A stretch of DNA of 64,000 nucleotides from an uncultured Methanoregulaceae archaeon (GCA_963737635.1 CAVTTL010000001.1:2304001-2368000); one strand, 5' to 3'; positions 45,680-64,000 are shown, counted from the first letter of the stretch. Notes: generated by a model not told the origin, from the sequence alone. Made by a program: numbers and translations.

Positions 45680-45793
45680 ATTGATCGATTTATAATGTGA
45701 AAGAGGTGATATTTAAATTTTATATAATAATCACTCACTCTAAAAAATCTCGAAGTCTCGCCAAGCACCAGATCTGGTGCAAATATCAAAAGT

Positions 45794-45812
45794 CCGCCAA
45801 CGCAACAGAACC
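45794..45812. repeat. Arm of the ~77-bp element family
   Basis: CCGCCAACGCAACAGAACC, one base from the bcp stop codon. Confidence 0.6.
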
Positions 45813-46349: not shown

Positions 46350-46410
46350 CGTTTGATGCTCAGACGGTTGGTGATTCATACATCACTCCCTGCCGACACC
46401 GTGACAGAGT
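46350..46410. repeat. Degenerate copy of the element family
   Basis: Right arm CCGACACCGTGACAGAGT is nearly identical to the reverse complement of 56436-56453. Weak left arm TGATG..G.CGGTTG. Confidence 0.5.
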
Positions 46411-46422
46411 CCGTATGGGCAT

Positions 46423-46731: not shown

Positions 46732-46869
46732 ATTTTCGATATACCCGGCTTGACTTCCCACTATCAGAATGATAATCATTATAAATACTACATTAATTAT
46801 TCAACATATTTAGAGATTTTTTTGATCCGGTTCTGCCATTCGTTAAAAACGATAATCTATAAACACGAA

Positions 46870-46953
46870 GTTCTGTTGCGTCTTCGGTTGATTTGATAAA
46901 ATCAATGAGGTAAAAGAATTGAAGATCATCCATACTGCAACAACATTCAAAAT
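46870..46953. repeat. Copy of the element family
   Basis: GTTCTGTTGCGTCTTCGG-TTG...GAGGTAAAAGA...TACTGC. Interior matches the 54392 copy. Confidence 0.6.
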
Positions 46954-49908: not shown

Positions 49909-50221
49909 GTGGTTCACCTTCCAGAAGCGCTTTGACGGATGCCGCAAAATGGATCCATTCATCGCGCTGTTCTTGTTCCTTTGTCTTTCCTGCATCGGTT
50001 AACCGGTAATATTTCCGTGGGGGGCCTTCACCGGATTCCTGCAGGTAGGTGGTTACCAATCCTTCGTCTTTGAGCCGGTGGAGCAGGGGGTAGATGGTAC
50101 CTTCTGCAATGTCGATCTTTTTTGAGATCTCGTCCACGAGCTCGTACCCGTAACAGTCTTTTCTGGCAAGCACGCAGAGGACGCAGATCTCGAGCACTCC
50201 TTTTTTGAACTGGATATTCAT
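49895..50221 (-). CDS. PadR-family transcriptional regulator
   Basis: [34 protein letters not shown]. Confidence 0.95.
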
Positions 50222-50287
50222 GGCATCCCCGTTATCATTTCATACACCCGGGCCGATGAGCGGCCGTCGCAATGAGTTGCGTAACAC

Positions 50288-50310
50288 TGTATCTTGCATT
50301 GTAAGATACA
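50288..50310. promoter_or_regulatory. Palindrome upstream of padR, candidate autoregulatory operator
   Basis: TGTATCTTGCA-T-TGTAAGATACA (11-bp arms, 1 mismatch). Confidence 0.6.
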
Positions 50311-50510
50311 TGTTAGTGTTTGGATGAGAGGTATATTAAAGCATCGGAGAACGGCGCTTTTCACCTGAACCCCCTTTTTGCATCTCACGGAGATCACTCG
50401 TTCCTTTAAGAGGAGCTAAAAAACGAGGCACCATTTTTGAGGCCTCATGTCGTTTTTAGCACTGCACAATTACGACTATTTTATCATCGAAGGATAATTC
50501 AGAGGCTATC

Positions 50511-51350
50511 ATGCAAATGGTCATTTCAGAAGACGGTACACAGATCGTTTTTGATAAAATAGGTAAAGGCCCCGTCCTTATACTGGTCGCCGGTGCGTTC
50601 CAATACAGGGCAATTGACGAGCGGACGAAACGACTTGCCGGGCTTCTCGGAAAACACTTCACGGTGTATAACTATGATCGCCGGGGAAGAGGAGACAGTA
50701 CTGACACCCGGCCATATGCCGTAGAACGGGAGATTGAAGACCTTAATGCCCTCATCAAAGATGCTGGTAGATCGGTATATGTATTTGGCATGTCGTCAGG
50801 AGCCGTTCTTGCTCTCCATTCAGCCGCACGAGGTCTTGATATTACTAAACTGGCGGTGTATGAGCCGCCGTTCAACTCCGGGGATAAGGACGCCCGCCAG
50901 GCAGCGGAACGCTATACACAACAGTTGATCCTTCTGCTGTCAGAGGGCCGCCGGAGCGAGGCCGTTGAACTGGCACGGACGAGCTTTGGGGCGCCTCCCC
51001 ACGTGATCGCCGGGATGAAACAGACCCCCGTGTGGTCACTGTTTGAGGCTGTTGCACCGACGCTTGCGTATGATAATGAGATCATGGGTGATGGTTCCTT
51101 ACCGGAAAAACTGGTTGCGTCGGTGACGATGCCCCTCCTTGTCATAGACGGGGGAGCCAGCCCTCCCTTCATGCGTAATGCCGCAAAAGCAGTGAGTGAG
51201 ACAGCTCCCCGGGCGCAGTATCGTACCCTGGAAGGCCAGACTCACGAATATGATCCGGATGTCCTAGCCCCCGTGCTTATTGGGTTTTTTTTCTTCCTGA
51301 AAACAACGCATGTATGCTTCCCGGAAACCCTTTCACTCATCTTAAGCTGA
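50511..51350 (+). CDS. Alpha/beta hydrolase
   Basis: YDRRGRGDS, GMSSG nucleophile elbow, YEPP, GQTH. The 3' end may be shifted in a T-run. Confidence 0.9.
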   Translation: MQMVISEDGTQIVFDKIGKGPVLILVAGAFQYRAIDERTKRLAGLLGKHFTVYNYDRRGRGDSTDTRPYAVEREIEDLNALIKDAGRSVYVFGMSSGAVLALHSAARGLDITKLAVYEPPFNSGDKDARQAAERYTQQLILLLSEGRRSEAVELARTSFGAPPHVIAGMKQTPVWSLFEAVAPTLAYDNEIMGDGSLPEKLVASVTMPLLVIDGGASPPFMRNAAKAVSETAPRAQYRTLEGQTHEYDPDVLAPVLIGFFFFLKTTHVCFPETLSLILS

Positions 51351-51490
51351 CCCGGAATATGAGTGAATTCCCCTTTTCAGCGAGATGGTTTAGCGGCCTA
51401 CTACCCAGTCCCATGGTCTCCTTACCTGACGGACTGATCCGGGTGATGCATACGGTAGGTTATCCCGGGAAACGCAAACGATACGGTTGT

Positions 51491-51940
51491 TCACCGGGCA
51501 TGCTCGTCATACCACGCCCGGATCTGGTCCTGGAGCGCTGCGTTAGTCTTCTCAAGTTCTGCATAGACCTTCTTTATCGCATCCGTAACCGGGGCCGGTA
51601 ATTGTGCGAAGACGGCGTCCGGTGCCAGGTCCGTGTGGACCCGTAGTTTTCCCGTGTCGTCCCTGGTAACGCAGACCTCAAATGAACAGACCCGGTCGAG
51701 AGAATCCACAGGTTTGTCTGCTGCAGCTTCGGTAATTTTGAGCGCCACCTCAATGGATTTTTTATTGTTGTCATTGTCGACTTTTAACCGGACAATGGGA
51801 AAATGGGGTACGGCATTGACAAAGAAAGCATCCTTTTCCTTGTTCACGAAGATCGAATAGTTAAACACCTCAAGCTTTTGTGAGGCGATGAGGTAATCCA
51901 CAAAACTTTTGATGAGATCTGACTGCTTATTGTCGCTCAT
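51491..51940 (-). CDS. Hypothetical protein
   Basis: 149-aa ORF from ATG 51940 with a C-terminal coiled helix. Confidence 0.65.
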   Translation of the reverse strand: MSDNKQSDLIKSFVDYLIASQKLEVFNYSIFVNKEKDAFFVNAVPHFPIVRLKVDNDNNKKSIEVALKITEAAADKPVDSLDRVCSFEVCVTRDDTGKLRVHTDLAPDAVFAQLPAPVTDAIKKVYAELEKTNAALQDQIRAWYDEHAR

Positions 51941-52202
51941 ACATTCCACCCGGATGACTATTCCTCTGTACAGGTTCTTGTTGCTCTCCTTATACATTAA
52001 ATTCCCGGTTCTTTCCCGCGGGACGATCCTTTCGGGTGCCGGTCCGGATGGTTCTGATTCGACAGCGGGATTTTTTTCAAATCCGGTGTTTTCTACGAAA
52101 AACACATCCACTGACTACTTCTCTTTGACTGCATTCCCCCTCCGGTAGATCTATCCGAGATCTTTTGTAGCTGGACGGAAAGAATGCCTATCCGGTGCAG
52201 TC

Positions 52203-52589
52203 ATGAAAGACGAACGTGAAAGAAACAGGAAGATGGTAGAGGAGTTCTACCATCTTTCCTTAAATCGTGGGAGGCCAGAAGAGGCCGCCGAAAAGTGCCT
52301 GGGACCGTACTACCGGCAGCACAATCCCGGGGCAGCGGATGGCGCAGAGGCTTTCATTGGATTTGTCCGGGGGTTCCGACAGGCATTTCCCCATCTCCGG
52401 TTTGATTTCCGGCGGTTCATCGCCCAAGACGACCTGGTGGTAGTCCACAGTCACCTGGTGAGGGAGCCCGGGGACCGGGGCGTTGCCGTCATGGATATCT
52501 TCCGGATCGAGAACGACCGGATAGTCGAGCACTGGGATGTCCTGCAAGATGTCCCGGAAACGGCGGCCAACAGCAACACCATGTTTTAA
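52203..52589 (+). CDS. SnoaL/NTF2-like protein
   Basis: YRQHNP..ADG, DLVVVH, DIFRIEN..IVEHWDV. Confidence 0.9.
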   Translation: MKDERERNRKMVEEFYHLSLNRGRPEEAAEKCLGPYYRQHNPGAADGAEAFIGFVRGFRQAFPHLRFDFRRFIAQDDLVVVHSHLVREPGDRGVAVMDIFRIENDRIVEHWDVLQDVPETAANSNTMF

Positions 52590-52674
52590 GGATCGGATTT
52601 GCCTCTCCGTCCCCGGTAAATCATATCAACTCACCGGAAAATTCGAAGATGCAGATCTTTTTTTTTATTCTATG

Positions 52675-52765
52675 GTTCTTCTGGACCGTATTTTTTCCTT
52701 GAATTCCCATGATTACTAAATCATTTCGGAGAAAAATCCTCATCAACCGCAAATGCATCAGAACC
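52675..52765. repeat. Copy of the element family (right arm clear, left arm degenerate)
   Basis: CAA-CCGCAAATGCATCAGAACC at 52744-52765. Confidence 0.5.
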
Positions 52766-52834
52766 AATCCTAACATGGTGGAAAAAAGAGGATATTACCC
52801 ACCGGTAATCTCTGCTCCCTTAAAACTCGTGGCG

Positions 52835-54278
52835 TCATTGTCCAGCACCGGACACCGGGGTGATTGCCGGTGGCTGCCAGCCCGTGCCATTGAGGATGCC
52901 TGGGATCGCGGCCGGCTGGGGAGCCAGGAGCCGCCAGGTAATCTCGAATCCCTGTCCGCTCGCGGTCGGCAGCCAGTTGCCGGCCAGAGCCGGGTCCGAA
53001 GGCTGCGTGGCCTGCAGATAGATATCCACTGAGCCGTCGGCGTTGTGTGCGAGCTGCGACGTGTCGCTGATCGCGAACCGGTTGATCGGATTGGGGATCA
53101 GTGCCCCCTTCAGGTTGTAGACGGTAAGCGACCAGCCCTCGGTCACCGGCGGAGCAGACGCCATGTGCACGACGTAGCTGGTCGATCCGTTAAGCGGCTC
53201 TTTGTTATGATCTGCCCAGCTCATGGCAAAAATCGTCTGGTCGGAGGTAACGGCACCAAGGCCAACCTGAGTTACGACCGCACGCAGCGGGTAGTTGGTT
53301 CCGTACTGCCCAAAGCCTCCCAGGAAATAGCCGTTGTGCTGGTCGAAGCTCGCAAGAAACAGGGTCTGGGTGTCGTTCCTGATCTGCGCAGGGCCGGCGG
53401 CCACGGCGTCTTCAAGACCCCTGATAGTATCTTTGCTCAGGTGCACGTTCTGCGAGGGTGCCATGCCGGGTCCGATCCCAACCTCCGCGAACTTTTGAAG
53501 CTCGGGCTGGTCGGCTGCCGGCGGTGGGAACAGCTGCGAGCTGTTGTCCGAGCATATCGTAGAATTCAAGCCCGGTGGGAAGCGGATAGTTCTGGACGGT
53601 CGTAGTGGGATTTGTCACGTTCTTCGGGCGGTAGTTCGTCCCGTACTGGCTCAATGGCGTCAGGGTGTAGTTATCCTGGATAAGGTTGACATTTGTAAGG
53701 TCGCTACTCCCTTTCAGCTGGGTCGATCCTATTATCCAGATGCGGTTGTAGTCGACATCGATACGCTGGGTTCCCGCCGGGATGGGCACATTATACTCGT
53801 CGGGCCCGGCGATGACGTAATCGCCCGGCGGGGTATCGTGGACGCTGCCGAGGTTCATAAGGTCGTTGGTGTAGGGGTCGACGAGGGCGAGGACGAAGAA
53901 GTGGTCGGTCACCTCCGGCACATGGAGGACTTGCGGCTCTGTGCTCAGATCGAGCCATGCGATCGACGAGAGCCCGGTCGAGCCCGGCGCGACAACCACC
54001 GTGCTTCCCGGGTTGTTGAGGGAGCGCACGTTGTTGAACTGGTTGACCGGGCCGAACGCACCGTTCGAGACATCGATGCTGGTCATGGTCTCAAACGTCG
54101 TGTTGGTCTCAAGCAGTGGCAGGCCGTACGTGTAGGCTTCCAGCCCGATCTCGTAGCCCTTGGTGTAATCGGCTTGTGAAACGGCCGACACGTAAGCCGT
54201 TATGAGCAATGAAGCCGCTATCAGCACTATCGCCGCACAGATAACGACGAGCGCACGTTTTCGCGTAATCGCATCCAT
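52835..54278 (-). CDS. DUF1254/DUF1214 exported protein (frameshift near 53550)
   Basis: YTYGLPL, WLDLSTEP, YGTNYPLRA, WSLTVY, DGSVDIYL, NWLP. GC-richer than its flanks. Confidence 0.85.
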
Positions 54279-54391
54279 ACCTGAAAAGAGACATTTTGCC
54301 ATTTTCAACGTGTATGCTTTTGAGAGTTTATCTCATTAACGTTTGTATTCGGTTTTTACCGGTATAGTATCCCGAAAAAACATTATAATTT

Positions 54392-54469
54392 GGTCCTGAT
54401 GAGCTGGCGGTTGTTTTGAATTTTTGCCGAGGTAAAAGATCAGTGATCTACTGCGAACGTATCAGGACC
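54392..54469. repeat. Complete ~78-bp inverted-arm element
   Basis: GGTCCTGATGAGCTGGCGG, 40-bp spacer, CTGCGAACGTATCAGGACC. Confidence 0.7.
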
Positions 54470-54493
54470 TCAAGAGCGATGGTCCCCGTATTT

Positions 54494-55417
54494 TCAATCC
54501 ATATATTTCTTAAACCATGCAAGCATTTTGGTCGGACTTTTTGAAAAATACGTATAACCATCCCAACGTCTGGTTGTTCCCATAATCCAGAACAGGTCTT
54601 TGTCTTTGATCGGGAGGTTATCGAACATCGTTTGCACATCGCTTGGTCGTGTCAGCACATCATCGTGTACCTGATACAGGAACGTAGGAACGGGGACGTT
54701 CTTTGCGGCGTTGATTGGCGACATCTCATCCAACCTGAAGCTTGTAACCAGCCTAACCGCTCGATCGAGATCTCCGAACCGTGAGGAGGGAACGCCAGCA
54801 AGTTCAAGAATCCTCTCCAGAATAACTCGTGAAGAAACGGGCTGTGCGCCAACTAAACACCTTACCCCGGTGAAGACCTCAGGCCTGCGGGTCATAGCGT
54901 GAATGGTGGCGTTACACCCAAGGCAGCGACTGAAGAGACCGATGGTCATACCTTTGAGGTCTTGTCGTGTCCTTGCGTAAAGAATGGAGCCAACGACGTC
55001 GCGCGATTCGAATATCCCACCGGTGCACAGGCTCCCGTTACCATCGCCGCTGTGACCAAAATTCCTGAGATCGTACGTTAAAACGTTGTAGCCCGCCTCA
55101 TGCAGAATCCTATAGTCGGGAATCAGGTTGACCTCAAAGTCATTACCTCCAGCTGCGAACATTGATCTCCAAGGTTCGATATGTGACGGAAATCCGTACC
55201 GATTGAAGTAGCGCGGGTGATTTACGATGATGAGCTTATCTGAGCCGTTTCGAGGGATGACCCAGGCTTCCAGTGGCACCCCATCCTCAGAGGAGAATGT
55301 CACGTTTTCGTACTCAAGATTCTCATCGGCAGGCGTCCCGAGAATCGGTGCCCTGGGTTGCAGCCTGAAGCCATTCGCGACGTTTTGAATTAATCGTGTG
55401 CTTTCCTCATCATTCAT
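54494..55417 (-). CDS. Alpha/beta hydrolase (Cys at the nucleophile position)
   Basis: EDGVPLEAW, YDLRNFGHS, FSRCLG, RRWDGY. Confidence 0.85.
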   Translation of the reverse strand: MNDEESTRLIQNVANGFRLQPRAPILGTPADENLEYENVTFSSEDGVPLEAWVIPRNGSDKLIIVNHPRYFNRYGFPSHIEPWRSMFAAGGNDFEVNLIPDYRILHEAGYNVLTYDLRNFGHSGDGNGSLCTGGIFESRDVVGSILYARTRQDLKGMTIGLFSRCLGCNATIHAMTRRPEVFTGVRCLVGAQPVSSRVILERILELAGVPSSRFGDLDRAVRLVTSFRLDEMSPINAAKNVPVPTFLYQVHDDVLTRPSDVQTMFDNLPIKDKDLFWIMGTTRRWDGYTYFSKSPTKMLAWFKKYMD

Positions 55418-55494
55418 TGGTGGGTGGTGGGTACGCAACTAAAATCACCTTTCCTTTCCGATGAGGCCCCTGTCAGCAAAAGTCCGAGGCCATA

Positions 55495-56298
55495 CTAGAA
55501 TTTGCCGTTGTGATTATTCCACTGATCCCGAGGGGGAATGGTCTCGATGACATCCCAGTGCTCGGCGATTTTGCTGTTTTCGAGCCTGAAAAGATCGTAG
55601 TAGGTGACGGGTTTGCCGGAAATAGAACCGCCGGCGACGACAAGAACGAAGTTACCCTGTCCGAGAATCATGAAAATCTTATCGACATTCATGTCCATCC
55701 CTTGTTTCGCCAACTGCTGCATCATTGTAGTCAATGCCGAAAGTCCATCACCGCCCCGGGCGTCGTGCCGGATGTACTTATCGCCATCGAAATACTGAGG
55801 CATCTTGTCAGACTGGCCCTTGAGGAAGATAGTCTCGTAGAACTCTTTGATCAGTGCCTTGTTTTTCTCGGTATCTTTGAGGTCTGTTGCTTTTGTCGGA
55901 CCATCGGTCGGCGTATGTCCACTCTGGTTTGGGGGCGTCCAATCAGTTTGATTGTCCCAGTGCTCGACGATGTGGCCATTCTCGAATCTGTAGATGTCGA
56001 AAAAGACTTTCTTCCCGAACAAGTCTCCTTCTGAATGGGTAAAGACGTAGGATCCATCCTGAAATGCGCGGACGACCTTCAGGGGACTTTTCTCCTTGGG
56101 AAGGTGGCTGATAAATCCTTCAACTCCCTGCACCCCGTCATAAGCCATTGGGCTATGATTTTTGAAGTTCTGGCGATTGATGTATGTGGTCGCCAGAGCT
56201 GGGTCTCTGTTTCCGATTCCTTCAGACACGGTCATGGCCTTTTCGATTTCAGTAATAATGAGACTCGTACCATTTCCTCCTTGGGCTTTACCGATCAA
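55495..56298 (-). CDS. Tandem SnoaL/NTF2-like protein (start uncertain)
   Basis: Two D(I/L)(Y/F)R.EN..I.EHWD modules. Confidence 0.88.
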   Translation of the reverse strand: MIGKAQGGNGTSLIITEIEKAMTVSEGIGNRDPALATTYINRQNFKNHSPMAYDGVQGVEGFISHLPKEKSPLKVVRAFQDGSYVFTHSEGDLFGKKVFFDIYRFENGHIVEHWDNQTDWTPPNQSGHTPTDGPTKATDLKDTEKNKALIKEFYETIFLKGQSDKMPQYFDGDKYIRHDARGGDGLSALTTMMQQLAKQGMDMNVDKIFMILGQGNFVLVVAGGSISGKPVTYYDLFRLENSKIAEHWDVIETIPPRDQWNNHNGKF

Positions 56299-56299
56299 A

Positions 56300-56363
56300 G
56301 TGTGGTCCTGAAGACCGATTCCTTTGTTGGCCCCGGTTGCCGAGGCGAGGGTTTATTCTGCAT
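56300..56363 (-). pseudogene. 5' remnant of a short-chain dehydrogenase
   Basis: AGGAGG SD, MQNKP, then shifted ASATGANKGIGLQ (TGxxxGIG). The rest is missing. Confidence 0.55.
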
Positions 56364-56434
56364 GGTTATCCCCTTTGTTCCTCCTGAATATTGATAAATG
56401 AACGTAATGGTACGATCTTTAGATTTCATCTGGA

Positions 56435-56513
56435 AGTTCTGTCACGTTGTCGGCAGTTCTGAACATCACCACTCCGAAGATAATTGACACCATGCCAAAG
56501 ACGTTACAGAACC
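56435..56513. repeat. Complete ~78-bp inverted-arm element
   Basis: GTTCTGTCACGTTGTCGGCA...TGCCAAAGACGTTACAGAAC, with a 41-bp spacer between the 18-bp cores. Confidence 0.72.
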
Positions 56514-56560
56514 TGTAAGGAAAACATATATAATGTCAACCCGCATAAGTTGTCTTATCG

Positions 56561-57001
56561 ATGCTGACCAATGAAAAATGGTTTGAATTCTGGAAACTTC
56601 GGCGTGATCATGTACCGAACATCACCATCGCGACGAACCTGGGTATCTCCCGGCAGGCCGTTTCAAAAGCCCTTCTCGCGATTGACGGGAAGATCGAGAC
56701 TGCCCTTCGCACTATGGCAAAAGCCAACAAAATTTCGATCGGGAAAATTAACCCACAGCTCGGGATTCTTATCGGTCATTCGGTTCCGATGGATACTGGT
56801 GCGGTCATTTTCATATCCGGCAAGCACGGCGTGCAGGTATGGTACGAACATGACGGGGATTGTGAAACGTGCGAGGAGTATACAGAGTGCATCGAACTGC
56901 TCTGGGATTATGCCGATGAGTTAAAAATAACCCTTTCTCAGAGTGCAGACCCGACAAAAATGGCAGAAGAACTCTTCGCAAAAGTAAAGGAGATAGCATG
57001 A
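56561..57001 (+). CDS. HTH transcriptional regulator with Cys-rich C-terminal domain
   Basis: IATNLGISRQAVSKAL and WYEHDGDCETCEEYTEC. Confidence 0.85.
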   Translation: MLTNEKWFEFWKLRRDHVPNITIATNLGISRQAVSKALLAIDGKIETALRTMAKANKISIGKINPQLGILIGHSVPMDTGAVIFISGKHGVQVWYEHDGDCETCEEYTECIELLWDYADELKITLSQSADPTKMAEELFAKVKEIA

Positions 57002-57351
57002 AACTGACCTTTTCTGAAATTGGCCATCGGCTTGGCTGGTGCCCGAAAAAGCGGAGATCACAGATTGTTTTGGATCAAGGTTTCATGGGAATTACCACAG
57101 CTGGAGGATTTACTATGGATGGAAAACAAGCACCTGACAGAAAAATAGATACAAGAGAAGGTATGGACACATGGCTCTCGACATACCTCAAGCTCGTAGG
57201 GCTTGAGCTTGTCCTGAGCGTGATTTTTATCTCGCTCGGGTACATTTCTGCAAGCAGTTATTTCCGCGGCGTGGGAGTGGGCTTGTTAATCGCCTGGGTG
57301 ACAGGCGCCATAGCCTATTTTGTCGTGGGGAGGAGAATGGTAAAACCATGA
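56998..57351 (+). CDS. GWCP-motif (DUF1673-like) 2-TM membrane protein, copy 1
   Basis: FSEIGHRLGWCP N-terminus. ATGA overlap with the regulator. Confidence 0.8.
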   Translation: MKLTFSEIGHRLGWCPKKRRSQIVLDQGFMGITTAGGFTMDGKQAPDRKIDTREGMDTWLSTYLKLVGLELVLSVIFISLGYISASSYFRGVGVGLLIAWVTGAIAYFVVGRRMVKP

Positions 57352-57695
57352 GATTTTCCGAAATTGGCCATCGGCTTGGCTGGTGTCCGAAAAAGCGGAG
57401 ATCGCAGGTTGTTTGGGATCACGATTTCATGGGAATTAGTATACCTGGAGGATTTACTATGGATGAAAAAAAAGATGAAATAGGCAGGGTCCTTCCGATA
57501 ACGTTCGTGAAGAGAATACTCATATTCATACTGGCACTCGTGGTCGTTATGAACTTTGGTGTGTTTTATTTTCACGACAACACAGCAATCAGCACTGTTC
57601 TTGGCGTAACCATCTTTGAGATAGTGTATATGGTCATTTTCTTCGCGTTCTGGGTTCCCCGGTATCAACGTGCAGGTGCCCAGGTCAAGTGGTGA
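57348..57695 (+). CDS. GWCP-motif (DUF1673-like) 2-TM membrane protein, copy 2
   Basis: Same N-terminus, different TM region. ATGA overlap with copy 1. Confidence 0.8.
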   Translation: MRFSEIGHRLGWCPKKRRSQVVWDHDFMGISIPGGFTMDEKKDEIGRVLPITFVKRILIFILALVVVMNFGVFYFHDNTAISTVLGVTIFEIVYMVIFFAFWVPRYQRAGAQVKW

Positions 57696-57787
57696 ACTTC
57701 GTAAATGGCAGTGCCCGGATGAAATGAAACAAACCAGAACCCCACGAAAATGGCAGAAGAACTATTCGCAAAAGTAAAGGAGATAGC

Positions 57788-58141
57788 ATGAAACTGACCT
57801 TTTCCGAAATTGGCCAACGGCTTGGCTGGTGTCCGAAAAAACGGAGATCGCAGGTTGTTTGGGATCAGGACTTCATGGAAAGTACTACAACTGGAGAGGT
57901 TGCAATGGATGCAAAAAAAGATGAAATTGGTATAATCATTCCGATAACGTTCACGAAGAGAATGCTTTTGTATATAGTCTTAGATTTGTTTCTGATTAAC
58001 CTGGTAGTGTTCTACGTGCACGAAAAACTGTCATTACCCCTTGTTATTATGGTAAGTCTTATTGAGATGATAGCCTTGGCTGCCGCGTTTGTGTTCTGGA
58101 TCCCCCGATATGAACGTGCGGGCGCTCAGGTCAAGTGGTAA
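57788..58141 (+). CDS. GWCP-motif (DUF1673-like) 2-TM membrane protein, copy 3
   Basis: Same N-terminus. Preceded by a duplicated 3' end of the regulator. Confidence 0.8.
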   Translation: MKLTFSEIGQRLGWCPKKRRSQVVWDQDFMESTTTGEVAMDAKKDEIGIIIPITFTKRMLLYIVLDLFLINLVVFYVHEKLSLPLVIMVSLIEMIALAAAFVFWIPRYERAGAQVKW

Positions 58142-58151
58142 CTTCTTTTTT

Positions 58152-58230
58152 GGTTCTGTTAACGTGTTGAGAGATCGCATGTTTTTTCAGGCATGGAAAT
58201 TTGATAATTCCCTAACAAGTTAACAAAGCC
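58152..58230. repeat. Complete ~79-bp inverted-arm element
   Basis: GGTTCTGTTAACGTGTTGAG, 39-bp spacer, CCTAACAAGTTAACAAAGCC. Confidence 0.65.
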
Positions 58231-58251
58231 TTCTTATGAGCTATCGGATAT

Positions 58252-58461
58252 TCATGGAGCCGGAACTTTTTTCCTGCGCTCCATGATGTTTTTAATGATC
58301 TTATCCGGGTCTTTCTCCAGATATTTTTTCCGGTCTTTTGTCCAGTCGCCGCTGCCGGTTTCATAGATATGGAGGAACCGGATAGCATCGTCAGGGCCAA
58401 GTTTTTCGACCAGCACGTCAAGTCCTTCCTGCTGGATCTGGTGCAATGTTCTGGCGCTCAT
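58252..58461 (-). CDS. Probable antitoxin
   Basis: EGLDVLVEKLGPDDAIRFL..YETGSGDWT. Overlaps the PIN gene stop. Confidence 0.75.
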   Translation of the reverse strand: MSARTLHQIQQEGLDVLVEKLGPDDAIRFLHIYETGSGDWTKDRKKYLEKDPDKIIKNIMERRKKVPAP

Positions 58462-58895
58462 TTGGTTTCCTCCTTTAACCAGATAACCGGGTTTTCTATA
58501 CGTACCTGTATGTCCCGGTGCATCTTAAAAAAGGTTATCATGCCGTCATCTGTTGTGAGAAGAATTGCTCCGGCACGTTCTGCACAGGCGATATGGAGCG
58601 AGTCCATCGCATCCCCTCCCATTGCGATGAGCACGTGCATCCGTGCAATTATATCCTCGTCAAGGATTACCTGTTCTTCCGCAATGGATACAACTTTCTC
58701 CACGCGAAGACGTTTCCTGATATCGGGAATTTTTGAGATTTCTTCGGTTATCACTTCGCTTTTGACCAGCGTATATTCCCGCGATGCGCAGCGACGGATG
58801 ATCTCTTGGACTGCGGTTACTTCGAGACGGATACGCCCTAAAGTCTGGTCATCAAACGGCCTACAGAGGCAGCAGACATCCATGTAGATTTTCAT
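58458..58895 (-). CDS. PIN-domain (VapC-like) toxin
   Basis: IYMDVCCLCRPFDDQ, DSLHIACAE, LLTTDD. Confidence 0.9.
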   Translation of the reverse strand: MKIYMDVCCLCRPFDDQTLGRIRLEVTAVQEIIRRCASREYTLVKSEVITEEISKIPDIRKRLRVEKVVSIAEEQVILDEDIIARMHVLIAMGGDAMDSLHIACAERAGAILLTTDDGMITFFKMHRDIQVRIENPVIWLKEETK

Positions 58896-59088
58896 TTCCC
58901 GCTCCCAGATTCTCCATAACCTTCGATCTTACTTTCCTTCGATGCGATAAAAAACGATAGGGAAAACAAAGCATTTTTTACAATTCGTAATGTGAATATC
59001 GTCATATTGAAAAATTCATTGTTCCCTTTTCTGCCGGATTACTGGTTTTGCAATTCGTAGCGAAAATATGATTTATGGGGTCATCGAT

Positions 59089-59637
59089 TCACTGTCCATT
59101 ATTGCCGGGCGTAGCACTCATTACTGGCCCGTTCCCATTTCCGGGTGCACTCATCGTTACCGGCCCGGCCAATCCCAATGCTTCCACCAGCTGTTGTGTC
59201 GTCACGCCTAACTGGGTGGCTGCTGCGTTAAAGTTCACCGGGCCATTGGAAATCGCGTTTGCGTTCAAAGCGTTCTCAAGATCCTGTTCGGAGACGCCCA
59301 GTTTTCCCGCCGCTTCTGTAAGGAGTGTTTTATTCGAAAGGAAGGAAAGGAATGCCTGGCCATTGCCTGTCGACCGGATAGTCCCCGGTCCGGAACCAAC
59401 CACTTGACCATTCGTCCCGGGACTTCCATTCACCATTTTCTGGACCGATGCAGCTCCGGGAGAGGGTTGTCCGGAGATGCTGCTGGTCGGGCTTCCGGTG
59501 ACGATCGGCGGTGACGAAGGTGTTGCGAGAAGATTGTCCTGTCCGGGACTGCTGCCAGAGTTCTGAACGCATCCGGTCATGACGATCAGAACAATAAGGA
59601 GTGCTGGCAGGGCCAGCGCTATGGTCAGTTTTTTCAT
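59089..59637 (-). CDS. Lipoprotein with one double HTH-like repeat
   Basis: Lipobox VMTGC and LTEAAGKLGVSEQDLENAL...AAATQLGVTTQQLVEALG. Confidence 0.75.
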   Translation of the reverse strand: MKKLTIALALPALLIVLIVMTGCVQNSGSSPGQDNLLATPSSPPIVTGSPTSSISGQPSPGAASVQKMVNGSPGTNGQVVGSGPGTIRSTGNGQAFLSFLSNKTLLTEAAGKLGVSEQDLENALNANAISNGPVNFNAAATQLGVTTQQLVEALGLAGPVTMSAPGNGNGPVMSATPGNNGQ

Positions 59638-59715
59638 CCTGCCGTCTCCATTGTTAAAAAAAGATGAATTCATTTCTGGTGATCTCCTGGCTTCATTCCT
59701 GCCCTTCACCGGCAT

Positions 59716-60711
59716 CTATTGTCCGGAAGAACGCATGACCACGAGTGCGACGCCATTAGACCCCGCAGTTCCACACGAGAGGGTTTTCGTGATAGTTTCA
59801 GGTGAAGGTAATCCCAGTGCATCTGCTAACTGCTGTTGGGTGATGCCAAGCTGCTGGGCGGCGGCATTCAGGTCCACCGGTTTATCTGCCGTAGCGTTGA
59901 GGGCATTCGCGAGGGTCCGTTCGGAAACCCCCAGTTTTTCCGCTGCGTTTGTCAGTACGGTGACATTTGAAATATCAACAAAGATCCCGGTCTTTCCTGA
60001 GGTAACCGTTACCGGTGTGGGAAATCCCAGTGCATCCATCAGCTGTTGCGGGGTTACTCCCAGCTGATTGGCGGCGCCGATAAAGTTCACCGGACTATCC
60101 GGTGTCGCGTTAAGCGCCTGTGCAAGAGTCTGTTCAGGGACGCCCAGTTTTCCCGCCGCTTCCGTTAAGAGGGTGACATTCGAAAGGAATGATCCAAATC
60201 CCGTCCGGAAAAGGGAATCCGCCGGGACTGCTTGTGTAACGAAAACTCCGGTTTTTCCCGAGGATGCGTTTATGGCGAATTTTGTCGGGAGTGCGGGTAA
60301 TCCGAGAGCATCCATCAACTGCTGCGGGGTAACACCAAGTTGTCCGGCTGCGGCATTCAGGTTCACCGGCTCATTGGTGGTCACATTTAGCGCGTCTGCA
60401 AGTGCCTGCTCGGTGACACCGAGTTTTTCTGCTGCCTGAGTCAGCATAGTGGCGTTATCCGAAACCGCGACAAACGCTTGACCGTTAACGGGCGAAATGG
60501 CTACAACCTCAGCGTTCGTGATTGCGCTCCCGTTTAAACTAAGTGATCCTTGGGTAGCGATTGCATAGCCACTTACCGGACCAAAGCACGTACCGTTGAT
60601 CTGGACCTGAGTTACTGTCGTTGCCCCGACAGCACCAATACTCAGTCCCATTACTGCAACGATAATGCAAAGACCGGTAAGGAGCCTGGTAAATCTCATC
60701 TCTTTTTTCAT
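59716..60711 (-). CDS. Secreted protein with three double HTH-like repeats
   Basis: Signal peptide and three AA(E/G)KLGV.E..LA.ALN.T...PV....AA.QLG.T.QQL.DALG.P units. Confidence 0.8.
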   Translation of the reverse strand: MKKEMRFTRLLTGLCIIVAVMGLSIGAVGATTVTQVQINGTCFGPVSGYAIATQGSLSLNGSAITNAEVVAISPVNGQAFVAVSDNATMLTQAAEKLGVTEQALADALNVTTNEPVNLNAAAGQLGVTPQQLMDALGLPALPTKFAINASSGKTGVFVTQAVPADSLFRTGFGSFLSNVTLLTEAAGKLGVPEQTLAQALNATPDSPVNFIGAANQLGVTPQQLMDALGFPTPVTVTSGKTGIFVDISNVTVLTNAAEKLGVSERTLANALNATADKPVDLNAAAQQLGITQQQLADALGLPSPETITKTLSCGTAGSNGVALVVMRSSGQ

Positions 60712-61004
60712 GATCTCCTCCTTTTTTTTGAAACAACCGTCCCTTTGGGACTGCTTGTGCGGAATTATATTTCCGCATTTCACTGTATTGATGGCTCATT
60801 CAAAAGGAACTCTGGCACATTTCTTAACCTCTCCGACGATAAGAAAACGTCTGTGCCGGATAACATATATACTGTATAATTCCCTCTTGGGAATTTCATC
60901 TCTTTTTTCGCGTGCAACCAGCCCCCTGCCGCACAACCATTCCTCCCGATGAGTAGAGACTTGTGTCAGATATCTTATTTATCGCGTCTACCGAATAGTG
61001 TATC

Positions 61005-61983
61005 ATGCGTTATCGGATAGCAGCTGGCCTTGTATGCCTTCTTCTGGCGCTCTGTATCCCCCTCGTGTCAGCAGCCCCGGTATCCGATATTCTTTATCCC
61101 GCTGTACCTGCGGGAACCGTCAATGCAACGCTCGCTTCAGCAGATCTGAATGGTAATCCGGGAAATGCCGGGTTTGTCACCGGTCTGGCATTACGTGCCG
61201 GCCTGAACGCGAATGCAGTATTTGCCCAGTCCGGATCGGCTGCGATCGTTTTCCAGGCTCAGGGGAATACGTCCCTGCCGGTTACCGCACTTGAGACAGC
61301 GACACTTGATTCAACGGCTATAGCGGCGCATTCCGGGCTTTTTGTCTGGACTTCCGGAAGCAATGCCGGCCTCTCCACCGAACCGGCGTTACTTCCTGCT
61401 CATGTTGTCGTCGTCAGAAGCGAAAAAGTCGTCTCCTATGATGGCCCGCCCGGAACCGGAATAACCGTTGGGGCGGTGACGACGGTTTCAGAAAACCCCG
61501 GAGTACAGGTACTATTTCCTCGGGAATGTCAGCGAGATTTCTACGGTCACCACCACACACGCGAAGGTTATTGTCTTAGGCACCAATGCAGTCCCGGCGG
61601 TTGTTTCTCCATCGGCCAATGCAATCTATTTCGCACGAGGTATTTCTGTTGCTACTCCGGGCCAGTCTCTGCTGATGAACAATGAACAATTTGACATCGA
61701 TCCATCATCGGTGAGATATTACGAGGATTCAGTTCCTGCGGGTAAACAACATGAATGGGTCGACCTCAATTGGACGGCACCGGATAAAAATCTGGAGCTT
61801 ACGATTTATGCGCCGGATGCCACGCTTGGCCCCTTTAACGATTCTTCAGACGGAAGGAACGATGGCAGGATTTTCCTCGATGTAGCAAGCATGGCAAACA
61901 TCACTGCCGGGAACTGGTTCTTCAAAGTGCAGAACGATGACGGTGATACCGTTGATTACACGCTGAACACGTATTCGGCCTGA
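61005..61983 (+). CDS. Secreted protein with C-terminal PPC-like (pre-peptidase C-terminal) domain (frameshift in C-run near 61497)
   Basis: Signal peptide. The frame after 61500 (YRYYFLGNVSEI...) runs into VDLNW..LELTIYAPD..GPF.D..DG..DGRI..GNWFFKV. Confidence 0.75.
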
Positions 61984-61989
61984 GGGTAT

Positions 61990-62724
61990 ATGGGACGACC
62001 TTTTCTTATTTTGGGTATTGCGCTTCTCCTGGTTATGGTATGTACTGCCGGGGTGTCTGCCCAGGAATATACGGTCCGGTCAGGATACCAGAACCCGCCT
62101 CCCCCGGATGCAGTTCCCCGGACTCCGGCACCGGTCGGCTTCTTCGATCTTCCCGTATGGGTCATTCTTGCCCAGCTGGCACTCCTCCCGCCGGAATTCT
62201 TCCTTTCGATAAAACTCTGGGCATTCCTCGGGTTCCGGAGGGTGTCCGGGGAAAACGTGCTCGAACAGGGCGTTCGTGCACAAATCTACGAATATATCCG
62301 GCAGAACCCGGGTATTCATCTGAGAGGGCTTGCAGAAGAGATGGGTATCAGTATGGGTACGCTTCGTTATCACCTCAACATTCTCCGGGATACTCATAAG
62401 ATCACGCTCAATGAAGGTGTGGCGTCGGTCAGGTTTTATGAAAATAACGGATCGTATACACCGGCCGAACAGCACATTCTCAAACACCTCCGGAACGAAA
62501 CCACGAAAAAGATCCTTACGATCCTGATGAATTCGCCGTCATCTACACGAGCAGAGATTGCGCAGGAAATCGGGGTGACCGGGCCGTCTATAACCTGGCA
62601 TATGAAAAGACTAGAGGACGATGAGATATTAGTCACTCACCGGGAGGGACGAAAAATATCCTACGAGATCCTTCCTCACATTGCGAGTTATCTTTCACGA
62701 AGGTTCGCCTCAGTGGATGTATAA
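61990..62724 (+). CDS. Signal-peptide/TM-bearing double winged-HTH transcriptional regulator
   Basis: Signal, hydrophobic segment, RAQIYEYIRQNPGIH..GTLRYHL and TRAEIAQEIGVTGPSITWHMKRL. Confidence 0.88.
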   Translation: MGRPFLILGIALLLVMVCTAGVSAQEYTVRSGYQNPPPPDAVPRTPAPVGFFDLPVWVILAQLALLPPEFFLSIKLWAFLGFRRVSGENVLEQGVRAQIYEYIRQNPGIHLRGLAEEMGISMGTLRYHLNILRDTHKITLNEGVASVRFYENNGSYTPAEQHILKHLRNETTKKILTILMNSPSSTRAEIAQEIGVTGPSITWHMKRLEDDEILVTHREGRKISYEILPHIASYLSRRFASVDV

Positions 62725-62969
62725 AGCCGGTTGTGTACGAAAACGATATTGTTGTTTAATCCGTCAATGTTGACTACTGTAAATGTCCCGACATGCACTG
62801 GAACCCGCCTAATCTCTCCCCTCCGTTTTCCGGCGTGAGACCCAGGCACCCGGCGGCAACGAGAAAAAGAAGGGCAATGGTGAAGAAAAGAGACGGGATT
62901 TTCATCAAAAGAGGGGAGTATTTTGGGAGGGATAAAGATGCTGGATGCAAGCCCGAAAAGAGAGAACGC

Positions 62970-63650
62970 CTAACTGACAACAACAGTCCAGTTATGCGTC
63001 TCGAGAATGCGTGGTTCAGGTTGTATATACCGTTGAAGAGTTGCGTTTATTGTCTGTATTCCGGTATTGGTCATAGTGACATTCCACCGGTCCACACCAT
63101 GCCCCGTATACCCCCCATTCACTACTGACGATGGCACGTCTGTAACGTCGATGAGCGTCCCGTTCAGAGCATACCAATAATACGTCATACCCTCATCGGT
63201 TATCTGGAGACCGGGACTTGCGTTTATGATCCACTGGTCTCCCAGCAGGGAGTAATCACCCAGTTCGAGGGTGAGATTGCTGTCCAGTTTTGCATAGATC
63301 GTCGCATCGTTCCACGTTTCATTGATCGTCATATTTTGTCCCGGTACTACCAATGCCGAATAATTGACTGGTCCAATATCCACGGTGGGAGTTGGCTTAA
63401 CCGGCAAATTCTGTCCCGGCACTGACGATGTCAAACTGTGTATTGATGCATTGTTCACGTTGGGAGTTTGCTCAGTCACCGTAGTTTGTCCCGGTACCGG
63501 TGCATTGCCCGCGTTGGGGTTTTGCCCGCTGGACCCAAGGCAGCCGACCGATAACACAACCATGAGGATGACCGCCCCGACTATGACCATGCCTGATTTT
63601 TGTGGAATCATGTTTACCATTCTCGACACTATGTCTCTAACTGACCACAA
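62970..63650 (-). CDS. Lipoprotein with chagasin-like (I42) Ig fold, divergent
   Basis: LSVGC lipobox and NETWNDATIYAKLDSNLTLEL..QW...SPGLQI...GVDRWNV..TGIQTINA. Start uncertain. Confidence 0.65.
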   Translation of the reverse strand: MWSVRDIVSRMVNMIPQKSGMVIVGAVILMVVLSVGCLGSSGQNPNAGNAPVPGQTTVTEQTPNVNNASIHSLTSSVPGQNLPVKPTPTVDIGPVNYSALVVPGQNMTINETWNDATIYAKLDSNLTLELGDYSLLGDQWIINASPGLQITDEGMTYYWYALNGTLIDVTDVPSSVVNGGYTGHGVDRWNVTMTNTGIQTINATLQRYIQPEPRILETHNWTVVVS

Positions 63651-64000
63651 AGGTCCAGTTAAGTGTCTCTAGATTGCGGGGTTCAGGAGTAGGATAAAAC
63701 TGGAGCGTGGCGGTTATCGTTTGTAGGCCAGTCTGTATCATGGTGACACGCCACCGATCTACACCATGCCCCATTCCCGACCCCATATACGTCACATTCA
63801 TGCCTGGCCTGTTTGTGATATCGATGAGCGTCCCGTTCTGAGCATACCAATAATACGTCATGCCCTCATCGGAAATCTGGATACCAGGACTCGCATTCAT
63901 GATCCACTGATCTCCAGCCAGGGACCCGTCAGTCAATTCGAGGGTGAGAGAGCTGTTCAGTTTCGCGCAGATCTCGGTATTGTTCTGCGTTTCATTGATC
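63637..64000 (-). CDS. Tandem paralog of the chagasin-like protein (5' end outside window)
   Basis: GDQWIMNASPGIQISDEGMTYYWYA..GHGVDRW is near-identical to the downstream gene. Confidence 0.75.
   Translation of the reverse strand, partial: INETQNNTEICAKLNSSLTLELTDGSLAGDQWIMNASPGIQISDEGMTYYWYAQNGTLIDITNRPGMNVTYMGSGMGHGVDRWRVTMIQTGLQTITATLQFYPTPEPRNLETLNWTFVVS

Follow-up and report, generated by a model that had tools for sequence, protein, structure and literature searches.

Gene Modules and Short Palindromic Elements of the Locus

The window, a stretch of 64,000 nucleotides from the genome of an uncultured Methanoregulaceae archaeon, contains a series of accessory gene modules separated by short palindromic elements. 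The first module holds a DUF1254/DUF1214 gene on the minus strand (52835-54308; Pfam PF06742, 98 bits, and PF06863, 113 bits), divided between two ORFs that overlap each other (52835-53569 and 53412-54308); in contigs of four metagenome runs one base is missing at 53536, within the overlap. The second comprises, also on the minus strand, a hydrolase-like ORF (54494-55438; Hydrolase_4 at 22.6 bits, a weak match below the cut-off), whose stop lies 24 bp from the element E2, and a SnoaL-domain ORF (55495-56298; PF07366, 45.6 bits). On the plus strand, the ORF map places a 146-aa ORF and three paralogous ORFs (56998-57351, 57348-57695 and 57788-58141) at 56561-58141; the GWCP repeat of the latter is readable directly in the sequence, and paralogues of these ORFs occur elsewhere in the genome and in relatives. 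The series continues with a toxin-antitoxin-like pair formed by a small ORF and a PIN-domain ORF (58252-58895, minus strand; PIN scores 23.3 bits, slightly below the cut-off of 23.6), homologues of which, 83% identical and with no element adjoining, occur in the related genomes G009 and G001. Most of the gene partition proposed in a first-pass annotation of this DNA is borne out by the Pfam search, with matches to DUF1254 plus DUF1214, SnoaL and PIN and a weak one to a hydrolase; neither the ORF labelled "HTH" nor any of the three ORFs with the GWCP repeat gave a match.

Inspection and an inverted-repeat scan locate three elements of 78-79 bp with paired arms. E2 (54392-54469, 78 bp, subfamily A; 61.2 bits with the covariance model) has 20-nt arms that are 75% complementary and 38 nt apart. 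E3 (56435-56513, 79 bp; 53.3 bits) lies between divergent genes, belongs to a subfamily common to the genome G103, and has 20-nt arms at 56436-56512 (80% complementary, 37 nt apart). E4 (58152-58230, 79 bp, subfamily B; 62.1 bits) is found 10 bp past the last GWCP stop codon, with 17-nt arms that are 82% complementary and 45 nt apart. E1 (52675-52765) is a degenerate 91-bp copy, absent from the covariance-model matches, in which the right arm is intact (one-arm HMM score 12.6) and the left arm decayed. The first-pass annotation had described inverted-arm elements at these four sites, the one at 52675-52765 as a partial copy, and its observation that the arms co-vary holds as well, with compensatory changes at 10 of 16 predicted pairs in 19 copies. 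Upstream of E1-E4 there are weaker, degenerate ends: a solo right-end-like terminal repeat at 45757-45812, which ends in GCAACAGAACC and whose partner left arm was not seen (one-arm HMM score 8.8, E 8.6, weak), an end resembling the E3 arms at 46363-46411 (score 6.9, weak), and an 80-bp element at 46869-46948 with a good left arm and a decayed right arm (score 11.9; absent from the covariance-model matches). A colinear core of 22.9 kb within the window has zero elements. The window encodes no transposase, as had been noted earlier, and the nearest one lies 19.5 kb past its end.

An Element Family in Species-Specific DNA

The covariance model detects 36 loci in the genome at E <= 0.1, all of them non-coding and 74-98 bp long. 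In BLAST searches E2 matches a copy at genome positions 1645485-1645565 with 86% identity (E 1.3e-18), E4 matches genome copies at 697678 and 1614181 with 80% as well as copies in G003, and E3 matches one copy in G015 with 79%. The likeness among elements is beyond chance and does not depend only on the seed. It spans the whole element length within each of the subfamilies A, B and C; the elements have the conserved columns GGYTCTG and CAGARCC, and most copies contain a central T-run. Orientation is mixed within subfamilies (A 5:1, B 4:3, C 6:2, the last in an array at 2139-2157 kb). E1-E4 are spread over different subfamilies, so that an exchange between identical copies cannot account for this array.

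According to a crude ORF map, 31 of 33 elements are intergenic; 16 are located within 50 bp of the 3' end of a gene, 7 are flanked by divergent starts, and further copies by convergent gene ends. The elements concentrate in species-specific DNA, where the modules that they border are of the regulator-plus-enzyme or transporter type. A regulatory palindrome, such as a transcription-factor operator, an archaeal terminator or insulator, or a small structured RNA, would suit the location of those 16 elements downstream of genes and the central T-run, and an element kept for another reason could act as a terminator. Nevertheless, a regulatory origin is very improbable considering that the position relative to gene starts is not fixed, that the Rfam search of the elements returned no family at E <= 1, that the copy number varies from none found to ~25 among species of one genus, and that the arms are homologous to insertion-sequence ends.

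Resident Insertion Sequences With Matching Ends

Four insertion sequences of 2.8-5.2 kb (2769-5230 bp) reside in the genome, each with a gene for a PF13610 transposase of 382-421 aa that contains a SWIM finger, a zinc ribbon, an HTH and a DDE domain of the IS240/IS6 type. All four transposases match PF13610 at 48-57 bits (cut-off 27), and IS6 (NF033587) heads the NCBIfam matches, with 114.1 bits across the full model (positions 1-202 of 202), which is below the 125-bit cut-off. The full elements start and end with GGTTCTG, and their terminal repeats of 24-60 bp, which begin with GGTTCTGT or GGTTCTGA, have GG tips and an internal cTGTt motif, while the "caaa" motif of the IS6 review is missing from them. 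Their cargo ORFs include GmrSD_N plus HEPN and radical SAM plus SocA/Panacea, which makes these full-length partners notable as IS6-like elements with defence-type cargo. The best arms of the small elements are identical to these terminal repeats at 20-23 of 24 bases, and at positions 9-24 the identity reaches 13-15 of 16 bases against a shuffled maximum of 11-13. Subfamily B, to which E4 belongs, has no full-length partner in this genome.

These matches bear on two readings in which a different enzyme would act on the palindromes. Integron attC sites have conserved R''/R' core sites and keep structure rather than sequence. If the elements were sites of the attC kind in an integron-type array, on whose folded single strands a tyrosine recombinase acts, their hairpin-forming sequence, fixed length and co-varying arms would be accounted for, as would the many copies directly after a stop codon and the single gene-plus-element units that sit between core genes; moreover, integrons are reported in Archaea (PMC9668308). 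This possibility, offered as an undescribed archaeal cassette system in one of the two proposals of the first-pass annotation, is largely refuted and keeps only a trace of probability: an integron integrase was not found (best TIGR02249 match 48.8 bits, cut-off 265), the genome has just two tyrosine recombinase genes (PF00589), located at 274 kb and 1460 kb and separated by hundreds of kb from every array, the conserved termini differ from the attC core, the copies fall into sequence families in mixed orientation, and the terminal repeats that the arms match belong to elements with a DDE transposase. The second reading, in which REP-like or IS200/IS605-type palindromes travel in single-stranded form with the help of an HUH (Y1) transposase, would involve a route without target duplication and would agree with the hairpin form and the intergenic position, but a search of the genome (90% complete) for Y1_Tnp (PF01797) gave no match and the arms correspond to DDE-type insertion-sequence ends, which leaves it with practically no probability.

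Flanks and Target Duplications

The full-length insertion sequences carry 8-bp target duplications, which are perfect in IS_a (GACTAACG) and IS_d (CGTGAATA) and imperfect in IS_c; in IS_b, CCTCTAGA is present at both flanks if the right end is placed at 1065642. The flanks of the small elements show no such duplication, in agreement with the first-pass annotation, and match on average at 2.08 of 8 positions (25 copies) compared to 2.11 at 2000 random sites. When offsets of +-2 bp are allowed, at least 6 of 8 flank bases match in 5 of 25 copies versus 7.6% of controls, and hence a few copies may be old simple insertions; the flanks of E4 reach 7 of 8 with an offset, in T-rich sequence. Two near-alike copies at 1613390 and 1621181 (score 71 in a 79-bp global alignment) both lack duplications. 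Among 37 elements no pair shares a split 8-bp duplication, the only matches being those of IS_a and IS_d with themselves; this counts against recent replicative cointegration since this reaction would leave one.

Breakpoints and Co-occurrence in Related Species

Rearrangement breakpoints between related species fall at element termini. Modules X and Y adjoin in G035 and G126 and are permuted in this genome, where the broken ends are element termini, and in the same two relatives an element terminus adjoins the remaining 14 nt of a gene that this genome has in full. A unit composed of element, 2.6 kb and element is found again in G103, and a gene-plus-element unit in G003; in both cases homology covers the inner flanks but not the outer ones, which are unrelated, and it stops at the outer element termini in three species. 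The coincidence with synteny breakpoints, which the first-pass annotation had put forward as a check, is positive at the three loci analysed and in the singleton copies, 6 of 6 of which are at core/accessory boundaries. Singleton cassettes carry one element and not two, which speaks against modules moved by these elements. Within the window, the four modules show no direct gain or loss at an element in any relative compared, and the covariance model gave 0 matches at 19 loci with homologues of these modules in other species. Homologues of several modules of the 2139-2157 kb array also occur in other species mostly without an adjacent element, as judged with the covariance model.

Among genomes of the genus, which are non-independent samples, the transposase was found in 9 of 60 other genomes and elements occur in all 9, and elements are also found in 15 of the 51 genomes where the transposase was not found. 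G103 has ~25 elements, and no transposase was found there with this query. Contigs of the four metagenome runs cover the region identically, with no module-skipping, back-joined, excised or variant form, which is weak evidence against reaction products because contigs drop rare variants.

A Proposed Role in the Assembly of Accessory Modules

The small elements are probably miniature non-coding derivatives of the resident IS6-like insertion sequences, by which modules would be joined in an IS6/IS26-type reaction; this reading is given a probability of about 0.65. The other proposal of the first-pass annotation, that of IS6-like MITEs acting in trans on gene modules, is supported by the match of the arms to the terminal repeats of the four insertion sequences, by the co-occurrence of transposase and elements, and by the breakpoints. 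In this reading each element consists of a pair of terminal inverted repeats set back to back, ~79 bp in total, and both arms would be bound by the transposases of the full-length relatives; as the small elements have no gene, any action on them could take place in trans only. The elements are not scattered as simple insertions, given the lack of target duplication, the intergenic species-specific sites and the outer termini at module differences. In the most likely mechanism, the transposase would cut at the element termini and link these to other DNA. Two routes are conceivable, replicative cointegration accompanied by the deletion of neighbouring DNA, and a conservative exchange in which two copies take part. 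The DNA beside an element may then be fused, lost or carried off as an element-plus-module unit, and repeated rounds would leave arrays in which elements and modules alternate.

Several of the data above could also be explained if the elements were passive MITEs, namely relics of ordinary insertions kept only where they are tolerated, in the intergenic parts of rapidly changing accessory regions. The breakpoints would then lie at the elements because the duplications were erased by host recombination of repeated copies or by simple turnover of accessory DNA, and modules would never be moved by the transposase. The mixed orientation within subfamilies, the different subfamilies that bound the window modules, the module homologues that mostly lack elements, the excision joints not seen in the contigs of the four runs and the five copies with flank matches under offsets are in line with this explanation. 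It is judged unlikely in view of the near-alike copies that both lack duplications, and of homology that stops exactly at an element terminus inside a gene (G035, G126) and at outer termini in three species; in addition, recombination between copies within the genome would keep half-duplications, and none occurs among the 37 elements.

An extension of the preferred reading, put forward tentatively and with the odds somewhat against it, is that in this methanogen genus the 79-bp IS6-like elements are mobile sites of recombination, which would be to a DDE transposase what attC is to an integrase. DNA would be exchanged conservatively at their termini, without target duplication, by transposases encoded elsewhere, and modules together with an element could be captured, reordered and passed between species in an archaeal cassette-array system that has no integrase. 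The functions of the modules would in that case include detoxification, efflux, redox, toxin-antitoxin and defence.

In bacteria, resistance regions are assembled mainly by arrays of the IS26 type. No description of an archaeal counterpart was found in the literature searched, and in this methanogen lineage a similar part appears to fall to a gene-less element about as long as two terminal repeats. If the mechanism is true, it would account for the building of accessory islands in these archaea, IS6-type chemistry would require only ~80 bp in cis, and the covariance model would provide a simple sequence marker for mobile modules in metagenome-assembled genomes.

Comparison With Known Systems

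REP/BIME sequences, which RAYT transposases mobilise, are small palindromes that sit between genes, frequently next to a 3' end, and show no target duplications. The elements described here resemble them in all these features, and differ in that the genome search gave no HUH transposase and the arms are homologous to DDE-type ends. With integron cassettes, including those of archaeal integrons (PMC9668308), they share the separation of accessory genes by short imperfect palindromes of fixed length, often directly after an ORF, and the single gene-plus-element units at otherwise conserved sites; unlike integrons, they have no IntI, other termini, sequence families and mixed orientation, and the presumed enzyme is a DDE transposase instead of a tyrosine recombinase.

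MITEs of the IS6 family are represented in ISfinder by MITEBth2 and MITEHarch3 (PMC6807381), of 227 and 336 bp (PMC7986276). Like them, the present elements lack a transposase and are built from both ends of an insertion sequence of the IS6 type. The differences are a length of 74-98 bp with little beyond the two repeats, several coexisting subfamilies, the absence of target duplications and the link to module boundaries.

Also close is the IS6/IS26 family itself, known for its pseudo-compound transposons and translocatable units (review PMC7986276). The transposase of the full elements has an N-terminal SWIM finger and an IS1-type zinc ribbon, unlike that of IS6/IS26, and zinc-finger extensions are reported in the review for Clostridia clades only. 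IS6 members are described as small, 700-900 bp with a single gene, and IS6/IS26 elements of ~800 bp have repeats of 15-20 bp, compared to 2.8-5.2 kb, cargo and repeats of 24-60 bp here. Array units also differ, being gene-less 79-bp elements of several subfamilies, with cointegrates or circles conjectural, whereas IS26 arrays consist of identical full copies in direct orientation. Common to both are a DDE transposase with IS6 as the best profile match, GG-tipped terminal repeats with a CTGT motif, 8-bp duplications on full elements, single copies within arrays without duplications, and rearrangements that stop exactly at element termini.

Elements and genes in the window

The window (contig C1, positions 2304001-2368000 of a 2.46-Mb genome) contains three complete inverted-arm elements, E2 (54392-54469), E3 (56435-56513) and E4 (58152-58230), which were recognized in the sequence and by an inverted-repeat scan; their arms comprise 17-20 nt, with a complementarity of 75-82% and a gap of 37-45 nt. 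The first-pass annotation had listed these three elements as well as a partial copy, E1 (52675-52765), and the latter was also borne out: by direct reading and a one-arm HMM its right arm is good, whereas the left one has decayed. The gene partition proposed between the elements stands for the most part. Pfam recognized DUF1254 plus DUF1214, SnoaL and PIN domains and gave a weak match for the hydrolase, and found no match for the ORF taken as HTH or for the three GWCP ORFs, the GWCP repeat motif being directly readable in the sequence. For the claimed SDR remnant, reading by eye shows a putative Rossmann-like N-terminal stretch, which is separated from E3 by about 64 bp.

Other features of this region were observed. 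One base at window 53536, inside the DUF1254/DUF1214 ORF overlap, is missing in the contigs of all four metagenome runs; either an assembly error or variation among strains may lie behind the apparent frameshift. The stretch of about 90 bp directly right of E1 (52759-52851) is found again at genome positions 206646-206739 (82%) and 2373672-2373732 (90%) and, in one metagenome contig, directly after the right end of another element (loose end 52791); it may represent one more family of repeats linked with the ends of elements. Paralogues 66-70% identical to window 56528-57048, a stretch with a 146-aa ORF and the beginning of the first GWCP gene, exist at three other places in the genome and also in several relatives. 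The contigs of two metagenome runs part ways at 57693, past the second GWCP gene, and a single back-joint (57477>57132) occurs, which suggests copy-number variation of the GWCP genes.

A genome-wide family of small elements

The whole genome was scanned with a profile of 16 copies, followed by a covariance model derived from 19; the latter detected 36 loci at E <= 0.1, including 28 at E <= 1e-5. The loci are clustered, with 12 within 17 kb at 2139-2157 kb, 4 at 1613-1621 kb, 4 at 2409-2419 kb and 3 in the window. Co-variation of the arms was evident as compensatory changes in 10 of 16 predicted arm pairs. The small elements form subfamilies that are similar over the whole element including the centre: E2 belongs to subfamily A, E4 to subfamily B and subfamily C predominates in the 2139-2157 kb array, while E3 has close relatives in another species (genome G103). 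Orientation is mixed inside subfamilies (A 5:1, B 4:3, C 6:2). Immediately before the left terminus of the element at 1616882 there is a partial end, GGTTCTGTC (1616872-1616881; L010 8872-8881), which is conserved at the same place in a related genome (G003, C65) and may be a remnant of an earlier element.

An integron-type cassette system had been offered as one of two readings of the elements; the genome search found no integron integrase, and the small elements differ from attC sites in that they fall into whole-length sequence subfamilies. Mobilization by an HUH transposase is disfavoured, no such enzyme having been found in the genome search, and so is a structured RNA family, Rfam giving zero matches for window 50000-64000 at E <= 1.

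Full-length IS6-like partners

The genome encodes four proteins with a DDE_Tnp_IS240 domain, each gene lying inside an element of 2769-5230 bp with long terminal repeats that start GGTTCTGT or GGTTCTGA. The 382-aa transposase of IS_c, the full element closest to the window, has the NCBIfam IS6 model as its best match (114 bits over the full model, below the 125-bit cut-off), and at its N-terminus there is a SWIM finger together with a zinc ribbon of the IS1 type. A review of the IS6 family takes GG tips as defining, along with a cTGTt motif and a duplication of 8 bp (PMC7986276). Perfect 8-bp target duplications flank two of the four full elements; a third has an 8-bp duplication if its end is moved one base inward and the fourth an imperfect one. 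The best small-element arms are identical to the terminal repeats of the full elements at 20-23 of 24 bases, and at positions 9-24 the identity amounts to 13-15 of 16 bases vs a shuffled maximum of 11-13. We regard the small elements as IS6-like miniature elements, with a probability of about 0.85.

Two full elements, both outside the window, carry cargo of defence type between their terminal repeats (C1 425105-429100, L039 2106-6101; and 1060413-1065642, L040 2414-7643). In one of them it consists of GmrSD_N (DUF262) and a RiboL-PSP HEPN protein; in the other there are genes for a radical SAM and a SocA/Panacea protein, and two further ORFs that match no family. Homologues of the transposase form 4366 clusters at E <= 1e-5, and those with a name, from Methanoregula, Methanoperedens and others, bear only the label 'DDE-type integrase/transposase/recombinase'. 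At 2385503-2385548 (L012 503-548) a solo right terminal repeat of the IS_c type faces the left end of IS_c across a gap of 10 bp; a partner left end for it was not found.

Applied to a 100-genome sample of the order, the covariance model matches four of the six members of the genus and, beyond it, two further genera of the family and a single genome from a different family. Within 60 genomes of the genus, 24 have model matches (from none found to about 25 copies), the nine genomes in which the transposase was found all carry small elements, and 15 of the 51 without a transposase match carry them too, including G103 with about 25, these being counts over related genomes that are not independent and draft assemblies that often lose repeats.

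Target duplications and placement

The left and right flanks of 25 small copies share a mean of 2.08 of 8 bases, vs 2.11 at 2000 random sites, and two small copies that score 71 in a 79-bp global alignment both lack duplications. A search for split duplications between element pairs, in direct or inverted flanks at >= 7/8, recovered only the own duplications of two full elements. When offsets of +-2 bp are allowed, 5 of 25 copies reach at least 6 of 8 matching flank bases vs 7.6% of controls, and for this reason a few small copies may be old simple insertions; E4 is among the five, with a 7/8 match in T-rich sequence. The spacer that the relatives have at the 1669551 locus is replaced here, not interrupted, and the empty-site comparison therefore yields no readable duplication.

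On a crude ORF map covering 85% of the genome, 31 of 33 small copies are intergenic, 16 lie within 50 bp of a gene 3' end and 7 between divergent starts. Placement is thus varied, with no fixed position relative to promoters.

Accessory modules and rearrangement breakpoints

The coincidence of elements with synteny breakpoints, a relation raised in the first-pass annotation, was observed in a comparison that covered six singleton sites, three loci and one control stretch of 22.9 kb. Five relatives are colinear with the control, window 1-22.9 kb, which has zero elements; synteny with these relatives ends at about 22900, the DNA from there to the window end is species-specific or scattered, and region 50-62 kb has scattered gene matches only, across 30 relatives. 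Each of the six singletons examined sits where conserved DNA gives way to variable DNA. In one example, a PK_C-domain gene and an element separate two genes, for a tRNA synthetase and a PAS kinase, that are 119-190 bp apart in three relatives (G126, G015, G004).

The modules that elements set apart in the 2139-2157 kb array are composed of a regulator plus an enzyme or transporter: TetR and an ABC transporter; HxlR, a metallo-beta-lactamase-fold protein and an MFS transporter; MarR and a nitroreductase. Two of these modules are adjacent in relatives G035 and G126 (88-95% identity) and permuted here, with element termini at the broken ends. The breaks are base-exact: in both relatives an element terminus adjoins a 14-nt stub of an FMN-reductase gene that is intact in our genome. 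The HxlR gene is followed by a subfamily C element here, a subfamily A element in G126 and the last seven bases of one element in G035. A unit of element, 2.6 kb and element (1614181-1616961) also occurs in G103 with 79-94% identity, and a gene plus element recurs in G003; in these shared units homology of the inner flanks extends as far as the element itself, with unrelated outer flanks. G035 and G126 lack a 196-bp stretch (2149367-2149562; L008 13367-13562) that lies between the MFS and metallo-beta-lactamase-fold genes and has the direct repeat TCCCATTTAAAT at its borders; either another small insertion or a deletion mediated by the repeat may account for it.

The covariance model gave 0 matches in 9 loci of other species with homologues of the window modules, which gives no sign that these modules travel with elements; 10 loci around two singleton sites likewise gave none. 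The sequencing runs listed as containing this organism include no RNA data. The contigs of four metagenome DNA runs cover the region identically, with no module-skipping joint or circular junction, which shows the region to be present and cannot show variants to be absent; loose contig ends at 54421/54469 and 58197/58230 correspond to paralogous elements elsewhere. That the elements are passive relics, and the breakpoints a product of host recombination or island turnover, is the serious rival explanation: it agrees with the different subfamilies of the window's elements, with module homologues that elsewhere mostly lack elements and with the unchanged region in the metagenome contigs, but it is at odds with base-exact breakpoints at the termini, of which one falls within a gene, and with the complete absence of duplication halves. 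Our preferred reading, to which we give about 0.5-0.6, is inferred: the small elements mark the sites at which accessory modules are joined and lost, and probably bring these events about; IS6/IS26-type transposase reactions in trans would join or remove modules at the elements, in line with the other reading first offered, that of IS6-like MITEs acting on modules in trans.

Comparison with known systems

The small elements differ from ordinary MITEs by the absent target duplications. Only two IS6 MITEs, of 227 and 336 bp, are reported in the IS6 review (PMC7986276; PMC6807381), whereas the elements described here are very small, duplication-free and divided into several subfamilies. The review mentions only one cargo-carrying IS6 member, and zinc-finger extensions in Clostridia only, while the partners found here are unusually long, cargo-carrying IS6-like elements in an archaeon. 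Literature on IS6 MITEs in archaea, Methanoregula transposons, translocatable units with MITEs and ISM1 yielded no description of the small elements, a group that may already bear a name in ISfinder.
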